Assembly (NCBI GenBank): GCA_964604955.1
Contig: CAZSBE010000002.1
Coordinates: forward strand, 194 to 64,193
Reading direction: 5' to 3'
Length of the DNA: 64,000 nucleotides
From: an uncultured bacterium
Lineage (GTDB): Bacteria; Arandabacterota; Arandabacteria; Arandabacterales; JALGWA01
Shown: piece after piece, positions 17,525 to 57,477 of the stretch
Layout: the number at the start of each line of letters is the position of its first letter
Numbering within the stretch: position 1 is the first letter of the stretch
Notes under the pieces: model-generated
Seen by the model: only the letters and a program-made list of their open reading frames with translations
Told to the model about the DNA's origin: nothing
Database searches by the model: none
Position numbers and translations under genes: made by a program

Positions 17525-19219
17525 TCACCTCCGCACCAGCACGACAGGCATCTTCGAGTGAATCGTCCGCCCGCCGCCGGTGGGCGAGGCCTCCAGAAGG
17601 ACTATATAGACTCCGATCGGCGCCGGGCGCCCGTCCTTCACGCTGCCGTCCCAGAAGGTGATCCTTCTCTCCTCAACCAGGTCCCCGTCCAGAAGCGTCT
17701 TGAACGGCCGGCCGTTGATGTCGAACACCTTGAGCCTCACGACCGCCGGTGCCGGCATTTCAACCGAGACCGAGAGCAGGTCATCGGCGCCATCGCCGTC
17801 CGGCGAAAAAGTCCCCGGCCGGATCTTGAGATAGCCCCCGGGCTCGGAGAAAGTCACCGACACGCTGTTCGGCCGGCCCGGGCTTGCCGGCGACGACCCG
17901 TAGTGCGGCGACCAGTTGGAGGCACGCTCCGATTTAGCCTGGGAGTCGATCCTCTCGACGGAGCGCCCGGGCTTGCCCCAGGCCGCGCTGTATGCAACCG
18001 AATCCACGCGTGTCCCGAAGGCGTCCCGCAGGACGACCATGTCGGCGTAGCCGCGCGGGCCTTCTGTATCGTTGAGGGTCGGCCAGCCCCCGGCCGGCTT
18101 AAGTGCGGCGCAGCCCGCGCCCGGGTAGGCGGCCAGGAAGTCGTCCTCGTCCTCGACGAGCAGGAGATAACCTCCCGGCGCGAGCAGGGGGCCCGCTTCA
18201 GCCAGCTGCCTCCGCTTACCGCCCGAGTCCTCGAGCGTCCAGCCCTCGAGGCTTACGAACGATGCGCTTCTATTCAGGACCTCCACCCACTCGCATCCGC
18301 CTGAGGCCGGCTTGAAGATGAACTCGTTGACCACCACCGGCGCGGGCCAGATGAGGATGCTAGTCGCGAGCGTGTCGTTGTGATGCCACCTGTCGAGAGG
18401 GTGCGTCTGCCAGAGGCGGGCGCCGTGAAGTCCCTCTCCGACATTGGGGATGTCGACGGCGATCCTGCGGTATGCGCCCGGCTCGATGTCCGCATCGAGC
18501 CGCGACGAGTCCCGGCAGCCGCAACACGCCAGATGCACCCAGGCGCCGGCGCCGCACGAGCTCCCGCCGACATTCGCGATGTTCGAGATCACCTGAAGCG
18601 CGGCGTGGCCGGGTTGCGCATAGCGGGACAGGCAGGCCCTGGTTACGGCGAGGTCGAATGGCGGGTGATTGAAGTCGCCCGGGGAAGGCGCGGGGAACGG
18701 GGAGAAGTCAGCCGAGTTGTCGCCCGTGTCGATGCCGTCGGGGCTGCGGCCCAGGCTCGAGCCCGCCGCCGGCCCCGTTGCCGGAGAGCCTTCGTAGTAC
18801 TCTGCGAAGTCATGGGCGCCCCAGCCCACTACGTCCGCGGCGGACCCGGGCGAGTCGAGCCGGCAGGCGTCGGGTCCATTTTGAAGGTCAAGCGAGGTTA
18901 TGAAATCGGGCGCGGGCCGGACGGCCTCCTCCCCTATGACGAAGAAACCGCCTGCTCTTATGGTGTCAGCGCGCGTGCCCTGCCACTCGCTCTTCCACCT
19001 CCCGGCATGCGCGCCGTTCCCGGTCGCCACTTCATGATAGTGCAGACATATGTCGGCACCGGTTCCGTTGTAGAGCTCTATGAACTCCCGACCGGCGTCC
19101 GCCCCGTCGGGATCGTACAGTACTTCATTGATGACGACACCGGTGGAACCCGCGGAGCATACGCGGGGGAGCGTCAGAAGCAGCAGCGTTGCGATTGTCT
19201 TTTCCCATCCCATCATCAT
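17525..19219 (-). CDS. Secreted lamin-tail-domain (LTD) protein with two LTD repeats and C-terminal FlgD-Ig-like domain
   Basis: Start MMMGWEKTIATLLLLTL signal. LTD signatures are VVINEVLYDP...EFIELYN and VVVNEFIFKP...EWVEVLN. The C-terminal FSPDGDGADD motif fits a FlgD-Ig-like domain. The ORF-track N-terminal extension is translated repeat element. Confidence 0.7.
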   Translation of the reverse strand: MMMGWEKTIATLLLLTLPRVCSAGSTGVVINEVLYDPDGADAGREFIELYNGTGADICLHYHEVATGNGAHAGRWKSEWQGTRADTIRAGGFFVIGEEAVRPAPDFITSLDLQNGPDACRLDSPGSAADVVGWGAHDFAEYYEGSPATGPAAGSSLGRSPDGIDTGDNSADFSPFPAPSPGDFNHPPFDLAVTRACLSRYAQPGHAALQVISNIANVGGSSCGAGAWVHLACCGCRDSSRLDADIEPGAYRRIAVDIPNVGEGLHGARLWQTHPLDRWHHNDTLATSILIWPAPVVVNEFIFKPASGGCEWVEVLNRSASFVSLEGWTLEDSGGKRRQLAEAGPLLAPGGYLLLVEDEDDFLAAYPGAGCAALKPAGGWPTLNDTEGPRGYADMVVLRDAFGTRVDSVAYSAAWGKPGRSVERIDSQAKSERASNWSPHYGSSPASPGRPNSVSVTFSEPGGYLKIRPGTFSPDGDGADDLLSVSVEMPAPAVVRLKVFDINGRPFKTLLDGDLVEERRITFWDGSVKDGRPAPIGVYIVLLEASPTGGGRTIHSKMPVVLVRR

Positions 19220-19270
19220 CACCGCATCAATCGTCGCCCGCCGCCCCGCCCGAGTCAAGCTCCCCATGAG

Positions 19271-19318
19271 GGGGTCAGGTCTTAAAATGCACAAGGGGTC
19301 AGGTCTTGAAATGCACAA
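19271..19318 (+). repeat. REP-like element, two tandem 24-bp units (GGGGTCAGGTCTT[A/G]AAATGCACAA), upstream flank of the transposase gene
   Basis: Direct reading. The units are exact except for one A/G difference. Confidence 0.9.
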
Positions 19319-19372
19319 CACCCGGTGGCCCCACCATTCCCTCCGAATCTGGCACGGAGGTTGCAATTGTAA

Positions 19373-20236
19373 ATGCCCGCTATGGTAAGACCGATACGCA
19401 TTGAAGCCCCGGGAGGTGTCTACCACATCACTTCACGGGGAAACGCCAAACAGACGATCTTCCGGGACGCAGTGGATTACCGGTGTTTCTTCTCCATCCT
19501 GGGGGATGTCGCCGGCGACTGCGGGTGGCAGTGTTACGCCTATTGCCTCATGCCGAATCACTACCACCTGGTGCTGATGACACCCAGCGGAGCGCTCTCG
19601 AGGGGGATGCGGCAGATCAACGGGGTATACGCGCAGAGGTTCCATTGCCGCCATGCTTCCGTCGGCCACGTCTTCCAGGGAAGGTTCAAGTCCATTCTCG
19701 TCGACAGGGAGGCGTACCTGCTTGAAGTGTGCCGCTACGTCGTGCTCAACCCGGTGAGAGCGGGTCTTGTTCGAGAATGCGGCGACTGGCGCTGGTCCAG
19801 CTATCTTGCCACGTTGGGACGCGACCCGAAGCCCTCGTTCCTGGCCAGCGAATGGCTGCTCGGACAGTTCGCCAGGTCTCCGGCGAGGGCGCGGACCGCA
19901 TTCGTCAGATTCGTGGAGGACGGCCTCAAGGCCACCAGCCCGTTGGAGAACATCCGGGGAGGTGTCTTTCTGGGAAACGAGGCCTTTGTGTCCGGTTTCT
20001 CGGCGCAACTTGCCCGCAAGAGGGCCGAGCGCGACTTTCCCCGTGTGCAGCGCCACGCGGACCGGCCGCCGCTCTCGGAGATACTGCGCGCGACGGGGGG
20101 AAGCCCCCGGACAGGCCGGCAGATCGCGGAGGCGCGGGAGCGCTGGGGCTACACCATCACGGAGATTGCGCGGTATCTTCATCTGCACCGGAACACGGTC
20201 GCGGCTCTCGCAAGAAGAGCGGGCGAGCAGGACTGA
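19373..20236 (+). CDS. Y1 HUH tyrosine transposase, IS200/IS605-like and REP-associated (RAYT-type), with C-terminal HTH region
   Basis: 287 aa. HuH motif HYHLVL. Downstream catalytic Tyr region RWSSYLAT. It is the only plus-strand gene in the window. It is flanked by inverted copies of the short repeat. Confidence 0.75.
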   Translation: MPAMVRPIRIEAPGGVYHITSRGNAKQTIFRDAVDYRCFFSILGDVAGDCGWQCYAYCLMPNHYHLVLMTPSGALSRGMRQINGVYAQRFHCRHASVGHVFQGRFKSILVDREAYLLEVCRYVVLNPVRAGLVRECGDWRWSSYLATLGRDPKPSFLASEWLLGQFARSPARARTAFVRFVEDGLKATSPLENIRGGVFLGNEAFVSGFSAQLARKRAERDFPRVQRHADRPPLSEILRATGGSPRTGRQIAEARERWGYTITEIARYLHLHRNTVAALARRAGEQD

Positions 20237-20254
20237 CCCGGAGCAGCCCGGGCT

Positions 20255-20290
20255 TGTGCATTTTAAGACCTGACCCCGGGGTCTGACCCC
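20255..20290 (-). repeat. Inverted REP-like unit (TTGTGCATTTTAAGACCTGACCCC) plus palindromic tail GGGGTC-T-GACCCC, downstream flank of the transposase
   Basis: It is the exact reverse complement of the first unit at 19271. It also supplies the last codons and stop of gpmA. Confidence 0.9.
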
Positions 20291-21033
20291 GTGGGCCCGG
20301 CCTGGTCCGCGACAGACCGTTTGGCGCGCTCGACATCTTCCGGGTCACCGAGATAGCGGGACCTCAACGGCTTGAGTCCGTCGTCGAGTTCGTAGACGAG
20401 CGGTATGCCTGTCGGTATGTTCAGCCGTACGATCTCATCATCGGAGAGGCCGTCGAGGTACTTGACGAGCGCCCGCAGGCTGTTCCCATGGGCGGAGATG
20501 ATGGCGCGGCGGCCCGACTCGATCGCCGGGGCTATCGCCTCGTGCCAGTAGGGAAGAAAACGCGCGACGGTATCCGCCAGGCTCTCGGTCAGCGGTATGT
20601 CACTTTCATTCATGTCTCTGTAGCGCGGATCGTGCCCGGGATACCGCGGGTCCGATTTATCCAGGGGCGGCGGCTTCACGTCATAGCTGCGTCTCCACTC
20701 CATTACCTTTTCTGCGCCGAACTTCGCGGCCGTCTCGGCCTTGTTGAGGCCCTGGAGCGCGCCGTAATGCCGCTCGTTGAGTCTCCAGGACTTCTCCACC
20801 GGTATGTGCAGCAGCCCCATCTCCTCGAGCACGATGTCGAGGGTGTGTATGGCCCGTTTCAGAACTGAAGTGAAGGCGATGTCGAAAACGTAGCCTTCCT
20901 GTGAAAGGAGAGCCGCGGCTTTGTGGGCTTCCTCCACGCCCCTCGCCGAAAGGCCGACGTCGGTCCAGCCCGTGAACCTGTTCTCCTTATTCCAGGTGCT
21001 TTCACCATGTCTCAAGAGCACGAGTCTGTGCAT
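20263..21033 (-). CDS. gpmA: 2,3-bisphosphoglycerate-dependent phosphoglycerate mutase
   Basis: [10 protein letters not shown] phosphohistidine motif, length, and overall dPGM similarity. The C-terminal ...DPGVRS-stop is encoded inside the repeat element. Confidence 0.9.
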
Positions 21034-22870: not shown

Positions 22871-22919
22871 TTGTGCATTTCAAGACCTGACCCCGTTGTG
22901 CATTTCAAGACCTGACCCC
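22871..22919 (-). repeat. REP-like element, two tandem units (TTGTGCATTTCAAGACCTGACCCC), overlapping the 3' end of sdhB
   Basis: Direct reading. A 1-nt spacer separates the units. Confidence 0.9.
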
Positions 22920-23687
22920 GTCGGGGGCTTTGCCGGCGTCGGATATCTCCCGGCGCGCGGCGCCTATCGCCATGTTCGGTGGAACCTGCTTGGGGCAGAC
23001 CTTCTTGCAGTTGGTATGGAATCGACAACTCCACCAGCCCCCCCGGTCGTTGGCGAGCATGAGCCGGGCATCGTCATCCGGCTCCCTGGTGTCGATGTGA
23101 AACCTGTAGAGCTTGGCGAGCGCGGCGGGGCCCATGTAGCCGGGATCCTCCGCGTTCACCGGGCATGCACCGAAGCACGCGGCGCACAGAATACAGTTGG
23201 TGTAGGGCTCGAGCGCGCGCACGGCCGCCGGGTCCATAAGGTACTCGCCCTCGCCCGGCCCGCGCGCGGGCTTGAGAACCGGCTCCACGGCGCGGTAGTA
23301 TTCGAAGAACCGGGTCATGTCCACGACAAGGTCCTTGATGACCGGAAGATGCGGAAGGGGTTCGATGAGGACCTCGCTCTCCGGGTCCCACTCGACCTTC
23401 GCTTCGAGCGCGGCATATGGCTTCAGGTCCACCTCTGCGGCGCCGGCAAGCAGCACCTCGACCTGCGTGCGGCAGGCGAGCCGCGGCACCCTGTTAATCA
23501 GCATGGCGCAGTTGCCGCAGACGGCCCCGCGGCAGGAATATCTCAGTGAGAGTGAGTCGTCGATCTCGTCCTGAACCTGAAAGAGGGCGCCCAGCACGGA
23601 CATGCCCGGCCGGGGCTCGATCTCGAAGGTATCGTAACGGCTCTTCCCCTCATCGGGGTCGAAACGGCGGATCTTGAGGATTATCAT
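22905..23687 (-). CDS. sdhB: Succinate dehydrogenase/fumarate reductase iron-sulfur subunit
   Basis: [2Fe-2S] CRGAVCGNCAM and [4Fe-4S] CILCAACFGACP motifs. The C-terminal ...GVRS-stop comes from the repeat. Confidence 0.9.
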   Translation of the reverse strand: MIILKIRRFDPDEGKSRYDTFEIEPRPGMSVLGALFQVQDEIDDSLSLRYSCRGAVCGNCAMLINRVPRLACRTQVEVLLAGAAEVDLKPYAALEAKVEWDPESEVLIEPLPHLPVIKDLVVDMTRFFEYYRAVEPVLKPARGPGEGEYLMDPAAVRALEPYTNCILCAACFGACPVNAEDPGYMGPAALAKLYRFHIDTREPDDDARLMLANDRGGWWSCRFHTNCKKVCPKQVPPNMAIGAARREISDAGKAPDGVRS

Positions 23688-25411: not shown

Positions 25412-25557
25412 ATGAGTATTCGGGTGTCACAGGATCCGCGCGGTTCTCCCCTTTGGATGACGGCAAGGGGCAGCAGGTTCCCACGCGTGGTCGATTCATA
25501 TCACCCGGTCGCCGCGAGGTCAAGAACGGGAGCCGGCGGACGGAAAGAGGGGCCAGG

Positions 25558-25626
25558 TGTGCAATTCAAGACCTGACCCCTGTGCAATTCAAGACCTGAC
25601 CCCTGTGCAATTCAAGACCTGACCCC
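25558..25626 (-). repeat. REP-like element, three tandem 23-bp variant units (TGTGCAATTCAAGACCTGACCCC)
   Basis: Direct reading. Three exact copies lie between the cytochrome c gene end and the sdhA start. Confidence 0.9.
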
Positions 25627-25633
25627 ATCCGGG

Positions 25634-26083
25634 CTACTTTGTTTTCTCCACCTTGGCCGGCTTCACAGAAGCGCAATATGCGACCAGGTCCGTAAGCCTC
25701 TGGTCGTCCCACGCCAGCGCCTGGCCCTTAAGAGGGTTCGTGATACAGTAATTCACGACCTGATCCAGCGTCATGACCCTCTTGGCCCCCGCCATAAACA
25801 TGGGGTACTTGGCCCCGAGATTGTCGAACGCCTTCAGGGTCATGTCGCCCATCTTGGCGTCCTTCATGCCACCGTTCATGTGACAGTCATTGCAGGTCTT
25901 CCCCGACGTACCCAGCTTCTTGTCGCTGAAGAGAGCGAAGCCCCGCTCGACTGACTTCGCCAGCTCAGTCACCGGATCCATCTTTGCCATCTCCTCTTTC
26001 TTCTCCTGGGCATAACTCACCACGACACTGCCGACCATGACGGCCAGCAATAGGAAGATCACCATCCTGTTCATTTTCGTCAC
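25634..26083 (-). CDS. Secreted mono-haem c-type cytochrome
   Basis: Signal peptide. Single CNDCH haem-binding motif. 149 aa. Confidence 0.75.
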   Translation of the reverse strand: MTKMNRMVIFLLLAVMVGSVVVSYAQEKKEEMAKMDPVTELAKSVERGFALFSDKKLGTSGKTCNDCHMNGGMKDAKMGDMTLKAFDNLGAKYPMFMAGAKRVMTLDQVVNYCITNPLKGQALAWDDQRLTDLVAYCASVKPAKVEKTK

Positions 26084-56064: not shown

Positions 56065-56108
56065 GGGGTCAGGTCTTCTCCGAGGGGGTCAGGTCTTGAA
56101 ATGCACAA
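56065..56108 (+). repeat. REP-like element: one truncated unit (GGGGTCAGGTCTTCTCCGA) plus one full unit (GGGGTCAGGTCTTGAAATGCACAA)
   Basis: Direct reading. It lies in the intergenic region between holB and the YbbR-like gene. Confidence 0.9.
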
Positions 56109-56112
56109 TGCC

Positions 56113-57477
56113 TCACGACCCCGCCGCCACCCTGAGCAAGGTGGCGTCGAGGAGGAGGCTGAGGTCGACGTTATAGGGGAGGATGCCGAAGGTGTCTTCG
56201 ATCTGGCGGGAAATGGAGAGGAGCGCCTGTTCGTCGAGAGACCTTGCGTGGTTTTGCATGGCAGTCAGGTACTTGTCGGGAAGCAGACTTCCAGTGACCC
56301 CCGATTTCACCCTGAGGGTTTCCACTATCCAGAAGATCAGAAGCTCGAACGTCGTCCGCACCTCATCGCGGAGCTTGCGCCTGTGGGCCACTCCCTCCCC
56401 CAGCACCGCCCGGGAGAAGGCGAACACGTGCTCGGGCCTGCCCGCCACTATGTGATCGAGAAGCGCGCGCACGGCGTCGAGTCTCTCTTCGACTCTCGAC
56501 AGGCTGAGCTCCAGCGCCCGGCCCGGGCAGTTACCCGAGAGCGCGGCGATCACCCCGGCCCGGTCTCCCGTATCCCCGACCAGGGATCCCAGGGCCTCGG
56601 CCATCTCCTGCGCCGTGAGCCGCTTGAAGCGCACCACCTGGCAGCGGGAGACGATGGTCGAGAAGAGGCTCCCGGCATCCGAAGTCACGAGGATTATTAC
56701 CGAGTCCTCCGGGGGCTCTTCCAGCGTCTTCAGCAGGCAGTTCTGGGCCTGCGGCGTCATCTTATGGGCGTCGTCTATGATCACCACTTTCTTGCCGTCA
56801 ATCAGGCTGCGCCTGGCGAGAAAGGACTGTACCGGTCTTGTGAATTGCCAGCCCTGGCGTTGAGTGACATATGCGATAGGTATGGCGCCGCGATAGGGCA
56901 TAAGCGAAAGAGGGTATTCGTAGAGAAGCCTCAAGAGGCGATACTCCTGCTCGGTCAGTTTGCCCTGATCGTAGGACTTCCTTATCGTCTCGGTGATCCG
57001 CGCCGGCGTGTAGCATTCCCTTGAGGGCACGCTGCCTTTCCCGAAGAGGTTGTCGCTTACGATGTTGAATCCGTCCACCGCCGGGTCGCGCTCAATATCG
57101 GGAAGGGGCTCCTCCAGGTACTCCCCCTCGGCGAGCGCTGCGACGGTCTGGCCGTAGCGTTCGCGCCAGTCTTCGCCCGTAAGCCCCAGGCTCGCTTTAA
57201 CAAACTCCCGGCCCAGCCAGCGCGGCTTGTTGGCATCGGCGATGAGAAGCAGCTCCGGGTGGTTGAGCGTGTCCATGGCCCGGCACGACTCGCAGCTGCC
57301 GGCGCCTTCGCAGGTGCAGTTGACGGCCCGCGCGAAATCAAGGGCCGCCTGCTTCTTGCCGACGCCGTCGGGCCCGAGAAGAAGATATGCGTGCCCCAGG
57401 CTCCTCGACGTCGCGACCCTTTCCAGGAGACCGAAGACCCTGCTGTTCCCTATTACCTTCCGCCCATTGTGCTGCAA
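56113..57477 (-). CDS. holB: DNA polymerase III subunit delta' with about 100-aa inserted region
   Basis: AAA+ P-loop GPDGVGK, and the SRC motif within TIVSRCQVVRF. There is an insertion between Walker A and the DEAD-like VVIIDDAHKM. Confidence 0.8.
   Translation of the reverse strand: MQHNGRKVIGNSRVFGLLERVATSRSLGHAYLLLGPDGVGKKQAALDFARAVNCTCEGAGSCESCRAMDTLNHPELLLIADANKPRWLGREFVKASLGLTGEDWRERYGQTVAALAEGEYLEEPLPDIERDPAVDGFNIVSDNLFGKGSVPSRECYTPARITETIRKSYDQGKLTEQEYRLLRLLYEYPLSLMPYRGAIPIAYVTQRQGWQFTRPVQSFLARRSLIDGKKVVIIDDAHKMTPQAQNCLLKTLEEPPEDSVIILVTSDAGSLFSTIVSRCQVVRFKRLTAQEMAEALGSLVGDTGDRAGVIAALSGNCPGRALELSLSRVEERLDAVRALLDHIVAGRPEHVFAFSRAVLGEGVAHRRKLRDEVRTTFELLIFWIVETLRVKSGVTGSLLPDKYLTAMQNHARSLDEQALLSISRQIEDTFGILPYNVDLSLLLDATLLRVAAGS

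Follow-up and report, generated by a model that had tools for sequence, protein, structure and literature searches.

A GpmA tail encoded by a transposase-associated repeat, probably acquired through loss of the native stop codon in an uncultured bacterium

The gpmA gene in the 64-kb stretch of DNA analysed here, referred to below as the window, ends inside a copy of a 24-nt repeat that contributes the last four codons and the stop codon of the gene. At a probability of about 0.85, the C-terminal tail of GpmA arose through loss of the native stop codon and read-through into a repeat that was already present as the flank of a vertically inherited RAYT-like transposase gene, the tail itself being most likely neutral. 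Under this proposal the transposase and its flanks would have settled beside a gpmA gene whose TAG stop codon directly preceded a half-unit and a full unit of the repeat, and this stop codon would long have been kept. The TAG would then have changed to a sense codon in the common ancestor of the clade to which the window belongs. Ribosomes would have read through the half-unit into the full unit, where the stop codon of the unit itself, lying in the frame GGG-GTC-AGG-TCT-TRA, would have closed a tail of nine residues ending in GVRS. The GVRS part would since have been frozen by constraint on the DNA as a repeat or as a transposase site. The features on which this reading is based are given in Table 1.

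Table 1. Position of the genes and repeat units discussed, in coordinates of the window
Feature	Position	Strand	Remarks
Two tandem repeat units	19271..19318	+	Left-hand inverted flank of the RAYT-like gene
RAYT-like (TIRYT-type) HUH/Y1 tyrosine transposase	19373..20236	+	287 aa; convergent with gpmA
Full 24-nt repeat unit, GGGGTCAGGTCTTAAAATGCACAA	20254..20277	-	Right-hand inverted flank of the RAYT-like gene; encodes GVRS and stop of GpmA
gpmA TAA stop, inside the repeat unit	20263..20265	-	Read directly from the sequence
gpmA, 2,3-bisphosphoglycerate-dependent phosphoglycerate mutase (dPGM)	20263..21033	-	256 aa; ORF list and translation, Pfam, NCBIfam, alignment with 17 homologs
Degenerate half-unit, GGGGTCAGACCCC	20278..20290	-	Encodes G-S-D-P of the GpmA tail
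Two tandem repeat units	22871..22919	-	Unit 22896-22919 gives GVRS and TGA of the SdhB/FrdB-like gene
SdhB/FrdB-like iron-sulfur subunit gene	22905..23687	-	260 aa, ends in ...GKAPDGVRS-TGA; Pfam Fer2_3 (2.3e-29), Fer4_8
Three tandem repeat units	25557..25626	-	Begin 7 nt past the TAG of a c-type cytochrome gene (25634..26083, -)
One partial and one full repeat unit (1.5), opposite orientation	56065..56108	+	End 4 nt from the TGA of gene 56113..57477 (-)

The gpmA gene of the window encodes a genuine dPGM. Its product was matched by Pfam His_Phos_1 (1.2e-34) and, at the level of a dPGM equivalog, by NCBIfam PRK14115 (404.7 bits against a cutoff of 305), with GpmA residues 1-245 aligned to positions 1-245 of the 248 positions of this profile. 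The catalytic His motifs of dPGM, R8-H9-G10-E11-S12 and H182-G-N-S185, are invariant in an alignment of 18 sequences. Residues 1-247 are native, and residues 248-256 (TGSDPGVRS) are a read-through extension. After the conserved Gln (Q244), the window protein has 12 residues, as compared to 3-7 residues in 76 of the 79 scorable distant orthologs listed. In the dPGMs of yeast and E. coli, the C-terminal tail caps the active site, a point against neutrality of the extension.

The anatomy of the gene end can be read directly from the DNA. On the minus strand, positions 20277..20263 read GGG GTC AGG TCT TAA, corresponding to G253-V-R-S256 and the stop codon, and these 15 nt lie entirely within the repeat copy at 20253/4-20277. 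An earlier note on this DNA had located the final four codons of gpmA and its stop inside an inverted repeat and had seen no true stop upstream in the ORF, and both observations hold. The 25 nt at 20253-20277 are 100% complementary to 19271-19295, and neither the sequence nor its translation contains an in-frame stop codon ahead of the TAA.

The unit at the end of gpmA, GGGGTCAGGTCTTRAAATGCACAA (20254-20277), is non-palindromic. It opens with GGGGTCAG, which is invariant in seven lineages, and the consensus of the 24-nt unit is GGGGTCAGGTCTTGAAATGCACAA. Nine full units, one partial unit and one degenerate half-unit, arranged in five clusters, were found in the 64-kb window. A 21-nt core of the repeat gave 9 matches with up to 3 mismatches (0.00 expected from 100 shuffles), and a 12-nt core gave 11 matches (0.44 expected). 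The arrays are head-to-tail with a period of 23-25 nt, and a stop codon lies inside, or no more than 7 nt away from, each of the four gene-adjacent clusters of the window. The unit carries an internal stop in both orientations, namely, GGG-GTC-AGG-TCT-TRA in one and ..ACC-TGA in the other. At the gpmA end, the half-unit together with the next GGGGTC forms the palindrome GACCCCGGGGTC, and an equivalent of this half-unit is present in two related loci (L004 and L007). In L003 (875-912), 13 nt are duplicated within the repeat copy at the gpmA stop (GGTCTTAAGATGCAGGTCTTAAGATGCACAA), which is not the case in its close relative L002. In L007 (140-200), a short tandem array, CAGTGAATTGCG / CAGTGAATGGCA / CAGTGAATTGCA, resembling the TGCAC end of the unit, lies just past the two units that follow the sdhB-like gene.

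The gene framed by the inverted copies encodes a RAYT-like protein whose stop codon is 26 nt from that of gpmA. The protein was matched by Pfam Y1_Tnp (9.6e-11, 42.3 bits against a cutoff of 23) and by the NCBIfam equivalog REP_Tyr_transpos (84 bits against a cutoff of 80), the latter over residues 9-142 of the protein and with a profile of 146 positions. In the translation, the HUH motif was assigned to H63-Y64-H65, and Y122 in RYVVLNP is the candidate catalytic tyrosine. The C-terminal half of the protein extends past the REP_Tyr_transpos profile and gave a weak match to HTH_23 (3e-4) that is below the cutoff.

The inverted flanks around the transposase gene are also found in L002-L007 and in four distant loci (L046, L052, L057 and L069). 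A scan of species-representative genomes with the motif GGGGTCAGGTCTNNANNTGCAC returned, among the matches listed, dozens of contigs of the MAG JASFEA01 as well as matches in Vicinamibacteraceae and in several proteobacterial MAGs. In the four distant loci, transposase homologs of 42-46% identity adjoin the motif directly, and its GGGG end faces outward as in the window; their hosts are Alpha- and Gammaproteobacteria, Desulfocapsa and another proteobacterial MAG. Since distant homologs of the transposase adjoin the same motif in the same geometry, the transposase is likely to recognise the 24-nt unit, and the two can be regarded as a putative cognate protein-DNA pair. The flank core GGGGTCAGGTCT..TGCAC is nearly unchanged beside these homologs in different phyla. 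In L046 (880-1741), the stop of the transposase gene itself (..VQLET-TGA) lies inside its flanking repeat, provided by the ACC-TGA of the unit in the opposite orientation. In JASFEA01 (L009, L017, L024, L026, L031, L032 and L068), copies of the unit bound an element of about 140 bp as its terminal inverted repeats; this element is MITE- or REPIN-like, its internal sequence being 72-87% identical between copies. No such doublet element of about 140 bp was found in the 64-kb window, where head-to-tail arrays only are present. A stop codon directly abutting the GGGG, in one of two frames, was seen in about 13 of the 169 listed occurrences, which is near chance by a rough estimate of 3/64 per frame, so that no TAG-containing target site is claimed.

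The comparison of gpmA loci provides a series with both states of the gene end. The order gpmA, repeat, and convergent RAYT-like gene was found at nine related loci (the window, L001-L007 and L073), with an LTD-domain gene beyond the transposase gene wherever the contig reaches that far. Because the repeat is the flank of a conserved RAYT-like gene situated between gpmA and the LTD-domain gene at these nine loci, it is likely to have preceded the tail. Relatives of GpmA comprise tail-bearing proteins with 81-84% identity to the window protein (P0002-P0004) and short-ended proteins with 75-79% identity (P0005-P0009 and P0013). The tail-bearing proteins have 256 residues and end in GP-G-G-[SA]-[AG]-PGVRS, the short-ended ones have 247-251 residues and end at about DQxKP, and the more distant homologs, numbering more than 100, have 247-252 residues.

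At the DNA level, the unit of L001-L003, three assemblies from other samples, is GGGGTCAGGTCTTAAGATGCACAA and overlaps the gpmA stop exactly as in the window. Five related lineages, with a GpmA identity of 75-79%, have the same layout, but in these the TAG is kept 0-24 nt before the unit. The gene ends in L005 with ...AAA CCC TAG followed directly by GGGTCAGGTCTCGAAATGCACAG, in L007 with ...GAG TAG GGG TCA GGA ATA GGG GTC AGG TCT TGA, in L004 with ...CCT TAG GGG CCA TTC GTG GGG TCA GAT CTT GGG GTC AGG TCT TGA, and in L073 with ...ACC TAG CTA CCC ACT GGG GTC AGG TCT TAA. In L004, L007 and L073, the full unit past the TAG is thus already in the frame that reads GVRS and stop. In the four tail-bearing lineages (the window and the three with 81-84% identity), the TAG is absent and the frame continues for 9 codons to the TAA of the repeat. 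The window sequence, ACG GGG TCA GAC CCC GGG GTC AGG TCT TAA, is codon-for-codon collinear with that of L007 from the stop onward, the TAG of L007 corresponding to ACG in the window and to GGG in L001-L003. To turn TAG into ACG or GGG takes two substitutions or more. As the number of codons upstream of the gpmA stop also differs between lineages (two codons), a small in-frame indel may have been part of the mutational path.

The ranks of GpmA identity suggest that the four tail-bearing lineages are monophyletic, and no further members of this clade were found among the GpmA matches listed in the metagenome scan. The same scan with GpmA covered 80 listed distant gpmA loci (65-73% identity), and none of them has the transposase or the repeat. 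No ortholog ending in GVRS without the repeat was found; every GVRS-ending ortholog has the repeat at this place. The association of the GVRS end with the repeat is therefore not a coincidence. A further difference among these loci concerns the DeoC-family class I aldolase gene upstream of gpmA, which is in two pieces (278 and 69 aa) in L005 (1186-2210) and is a single 349-aa gene in L006 (663-1712), whose GpmA is identical to that of L005; the split in L005 is probably a frameshift or an assembly error.

The earlier note had suggested that the element inserted into, or evolved at, the 3' terminus of gpmA and took the place of the native end. A mobile copy of the repeat would in that case have truncated the gene and supplied a new C-terminus and stop codon, which accords with the position of the stop and four codons in the repeat and with the end of the SdhB-like protein, which truly differs from that of its ortholog (..APDGVRS* vs ..APPDKK*). 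For gpmA, such an insertion is nevertheless highly improbable and is contradicted by the comparison: the homology of GpmA is complete to profile position 245 of 248, five lineages outside the clade of the window have the repeat at the same place but beyond the ORF, and it is one flank of a conserved unit of gene size and not a solo insertion. The match to the GpmA profile identifies the tail as an addition of about nine residues, not as a replacement. Stop-codon loss followed by read-through, rather than insertion, is indicated by the intact native end, by the location of the repeat beyond the TAG in the short-ended lineages, and by the collinearity with L007.

That the true stop codon was lost through an error of sequencing, assembly or ORF calling in a metagenome-assembled genome is very improbable. 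The window does belong to the assembly of an uncultured organism, and its exact GpmA protein is recorded only once (NCBI record), but the length of 256 aa and the PGVRS end recur in three independent assemblies (two from JGI, one from Logan) that have 81-84% identity and that stem from different samples and pipelines.

Conservation of the gene end is seen at the level of the DNA. The last 15 nt of gpmA are invariant in the four tail-bearing lineages and the 24-nt unit has one variable position, whereas in the gene body of the same lineages none of the 243 codon-aligned 15-nt segments is invariant and no 24-nt segment has one or fewer variable columns. Pairwise identity of the gene body is 80-82% for the DNA and 61-64% at third codon positions for all pairs except the closely related L002 and L003 (96% and 94%, respectively). 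Tail codons 248-252, which lie upstream of the full unit, vary (T/G, G, S/A, D/A/G, P). Across seven lineages, 20 of the 24 positions of the unit are invariant, as compared to a mean column identity of 60% around it. The invariance of the repeat part next to drifting tail codons and a variable gene body argues that the constraint acts on the DNA unit and that the GVRS peptide merely follows. The GpmA tail is most likely a functionally neutral by-product.

A selected function of the GVRS tail, as a C-terminal tag shared by several proteins, or of the stop within the repeat, through termination coupled to a structure or a protein at the repeat, was considered and appears improbable. It would be consistent with the conservation of PGVRS in four lineages, with the stop codons lying in or within 7 nt of the four gene-adjacent clusters, and with the recurrence of GVRS ends on unrelated proteins in different phyla. 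Stop codons close to REPs have moreover been reported to regulate translation, and in E. coli, as cited in PMC12306157 (its reference 17), REPs located no more than 15 nt from a stop codon cause ribosome stalling and down-regulate translation. The repeats of the window resemble these REPs in being extremely close to stop codons, but the E. coli mechanism needs a stable stem-loop and the window unit has none. As single-stranded DNA, the unit showed no hairpin on either strand, its folding energy of 0 to -0.3 kcal/mol not surpassing that of shuffled sequences. When the gpmA end was folded in a 61-nt context, the local hairpin was not significant (-13.6 kcal/mol, z = -1.58, equalled by 12 of 200 shuffles); its stem-forming half-unit and the hairpin are not conserved in L001-L003, and the hairpin is not conserved in L007 either. 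No terminator-like site was found between gpmA and the convergent transposase gene, and with the fold not significant, a terminator or hairpin role of the repeat at the gpmA end was rejected. Against a functional tail it also counts that constraint on the DNA accounts fully for the conservation, as synonymous changes are absent from the repeat part while the adjacent tail codons drift, and that spurious antisense ORFs end in GVRS too, as expected if the stop is a plain property of the repeat.

Other copies of the repeat also end genes, a point that the earlier note had proposed to check. The SdhB-like gene, about 2.6 kb from gpmA, has its TGA at 22905-22907, and its last four codons and stop lie within a unit. 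Its ortholog in L004 ends in ...GKAPPDKK-TGA, where a half-unit and a full unit begin one base later, and the L007 ortholog ends in a degenerate copy of the repeat (..DGGAR-TGA). At this gene, a small replacement of 2-3 residues appears to have occurred, the sequences fitting a small deletion or a rearrangement of the repeat array. Elsewhere, at least three genes supported by Pfam end in GVRS and a stop within the unit, encoding a LOG-family protein (L028), a PolyA_pol/CCA enzyme (L041) and an EF-hand protein (L064). A gene in L063 that is likewise ended by ACC-TGA is probably genuine by its composition. It has also been considered that the internal stop of the unit is a selected 'self-terminating' design, which would let a repeat maintained by a transposase sit flush with or fused to gene ends in the long term, and that the GVRS tag stamped on unrelated housekeeping proteins in several phyla might gain a function; this idea is doubtful and has little probability.

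The window and L004 have clusters of the repeat at the same orthologous intergenic sites, namely, downstream of the genes for cytochrome c, the SdhB-like protein and GpmA. In L004, the repeats are at 981, 3681 and 5279 and the cytochrome gene is at 539-973, and the genes are about 75-80% identical to those of the window. The sharing of these sites in spite of such divergence suggests that the repeats are positionally stable over long times.

Not every ORF that ends in the repeat is a gene. The ORF at 18380..19285 (+, 301 aa) is antisense and ends in GVRS inside the repeat, and ORFs in L013, L053 and L070 resemble such artefacts as well. A Pfam scan of the long GVRS-ending ORFs of L013, L053 and L070 gave no match. 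As antisense-like ORFs without a Pfam match end in GVRS too, a gene cannot be recognised by the GVRS motif alone. Read-through ORFs in L014, L027 and L031 were left out of consideration because of their composition only, which is Arg-rich and antisense-like. At the left-hand flank, the longest ORF of the LTD-domain gene (17525..19426, -) crosses the two repeat units in translation and is about 70 aa longer than the L002 and L003 orthologs (563 aa), and due to this excess the true start of the gene is probably near MMMGWEK. The extension of this ORF and the antisense ORF are likely annotation traps.

Among known systems, the repeat fits the TIRtron/TIRYT class with GGGGWSAS better than classical REPs, judging from its sequence. 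TIRtrons contain RAYT-like genes, termed TIRYTs, that are flanked by inverted repeats other than REPs, some of which carry GGGGWSAS (Di Nocera, De Gregorio & Rocco 2013, BMC Genomics 14:522, PMC3733652). The flanks of TIRtrons can form dispersed families with single, paired and clustered members, and TIRYT proteins can be distinguished from RAYTs by their length and amino-acid signatures (PMC3733652). The window shares with this class an HUH/Y1 RAYT-like gene with inverted non-REP flanks and a flank sequence that forms a moderately abundant dispersed family occurring singly, in pairs or in clusters. GGGGTCAG fits GGGGWSAS (W=T, S=C, A, S=G), a match that is based on an 8-nt consensus. The window protein, with its 287 aa, is longer than classical RAYTs, a comparison made on length. 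The head-to-tail arrays with a period of 23-25 nt differ from TIRtrons.

The REP/RAYT systems (REPtrons), such as E. coli RayT (TnpA-REP) with its GTAG-tagged REPs and the REPINs of Pseudomonas, are similar in that they comprise a single-copy, vertically inherited Y1 transposase gene with inverted flanks and a short repeat that is scattered between genes, mostly just downstream of them; the window transposase also passes the cutoff of REP_Tyr_transpos. However, the unit of the window forms no hairpin and in this differs from the REPs for which the mode of recognition by RayT has been established, and no conserved copy of a GTAG or CGTC tag was found at the unit ends. It thus lacks two defining features of classical REPs, and the label of a classical REP was rejected for this non-palindromic, untagged unit. 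The donated stop codon also differs, being an internal TGA or TAA four codons into the unit and not the terminal TAG of GTAG.

Translated repeats are familiar from Rickettsia palindromic elements, intragenic REPs and MITEs, which are inserted in frame into proteins. Intragenic short dispersed repeats are discussed as translated parts of proteins in PMC3733652, and the members of several REP families were reported to abut or overlap coding regions, with stop codons donated by REP-type repeats (PMC3733652). As in the Rickettsia palindromic elements, the repeat at gpmA is translated into a conserved protein at a tolerant position such as a terminus. The difference is that the gpmA ORF grew into a pre-existing repeat by stop-codon loss and that only 4-9 residues are added. 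Specific to the present case are a 24-mer that is not palindromic and has its stop inside rather than at its end, the recurrence of the GVRS tail, and the series with ancestral and derived states. It is no new kind of system but a clear and ordinary case of a known phenomenon.

For genome annotation, this means that pipelines will report GVRS tails on GpmA, SdhB-like and other proteins that are real but look spurious, and that they will also yield false ORFs and N-terminal extensions where reading frames cross these repeats. With before and after states in sister lineages, gpmA is a well-resolved case of a housekeeping ORF that extends into a transposase-associated repeat after loss of its stop codon. 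Such repeats can hold the same intergenic positions, with their sequence nearly unchanged, even where the genes on either side have diverged to a protein identity of about 75-80%.
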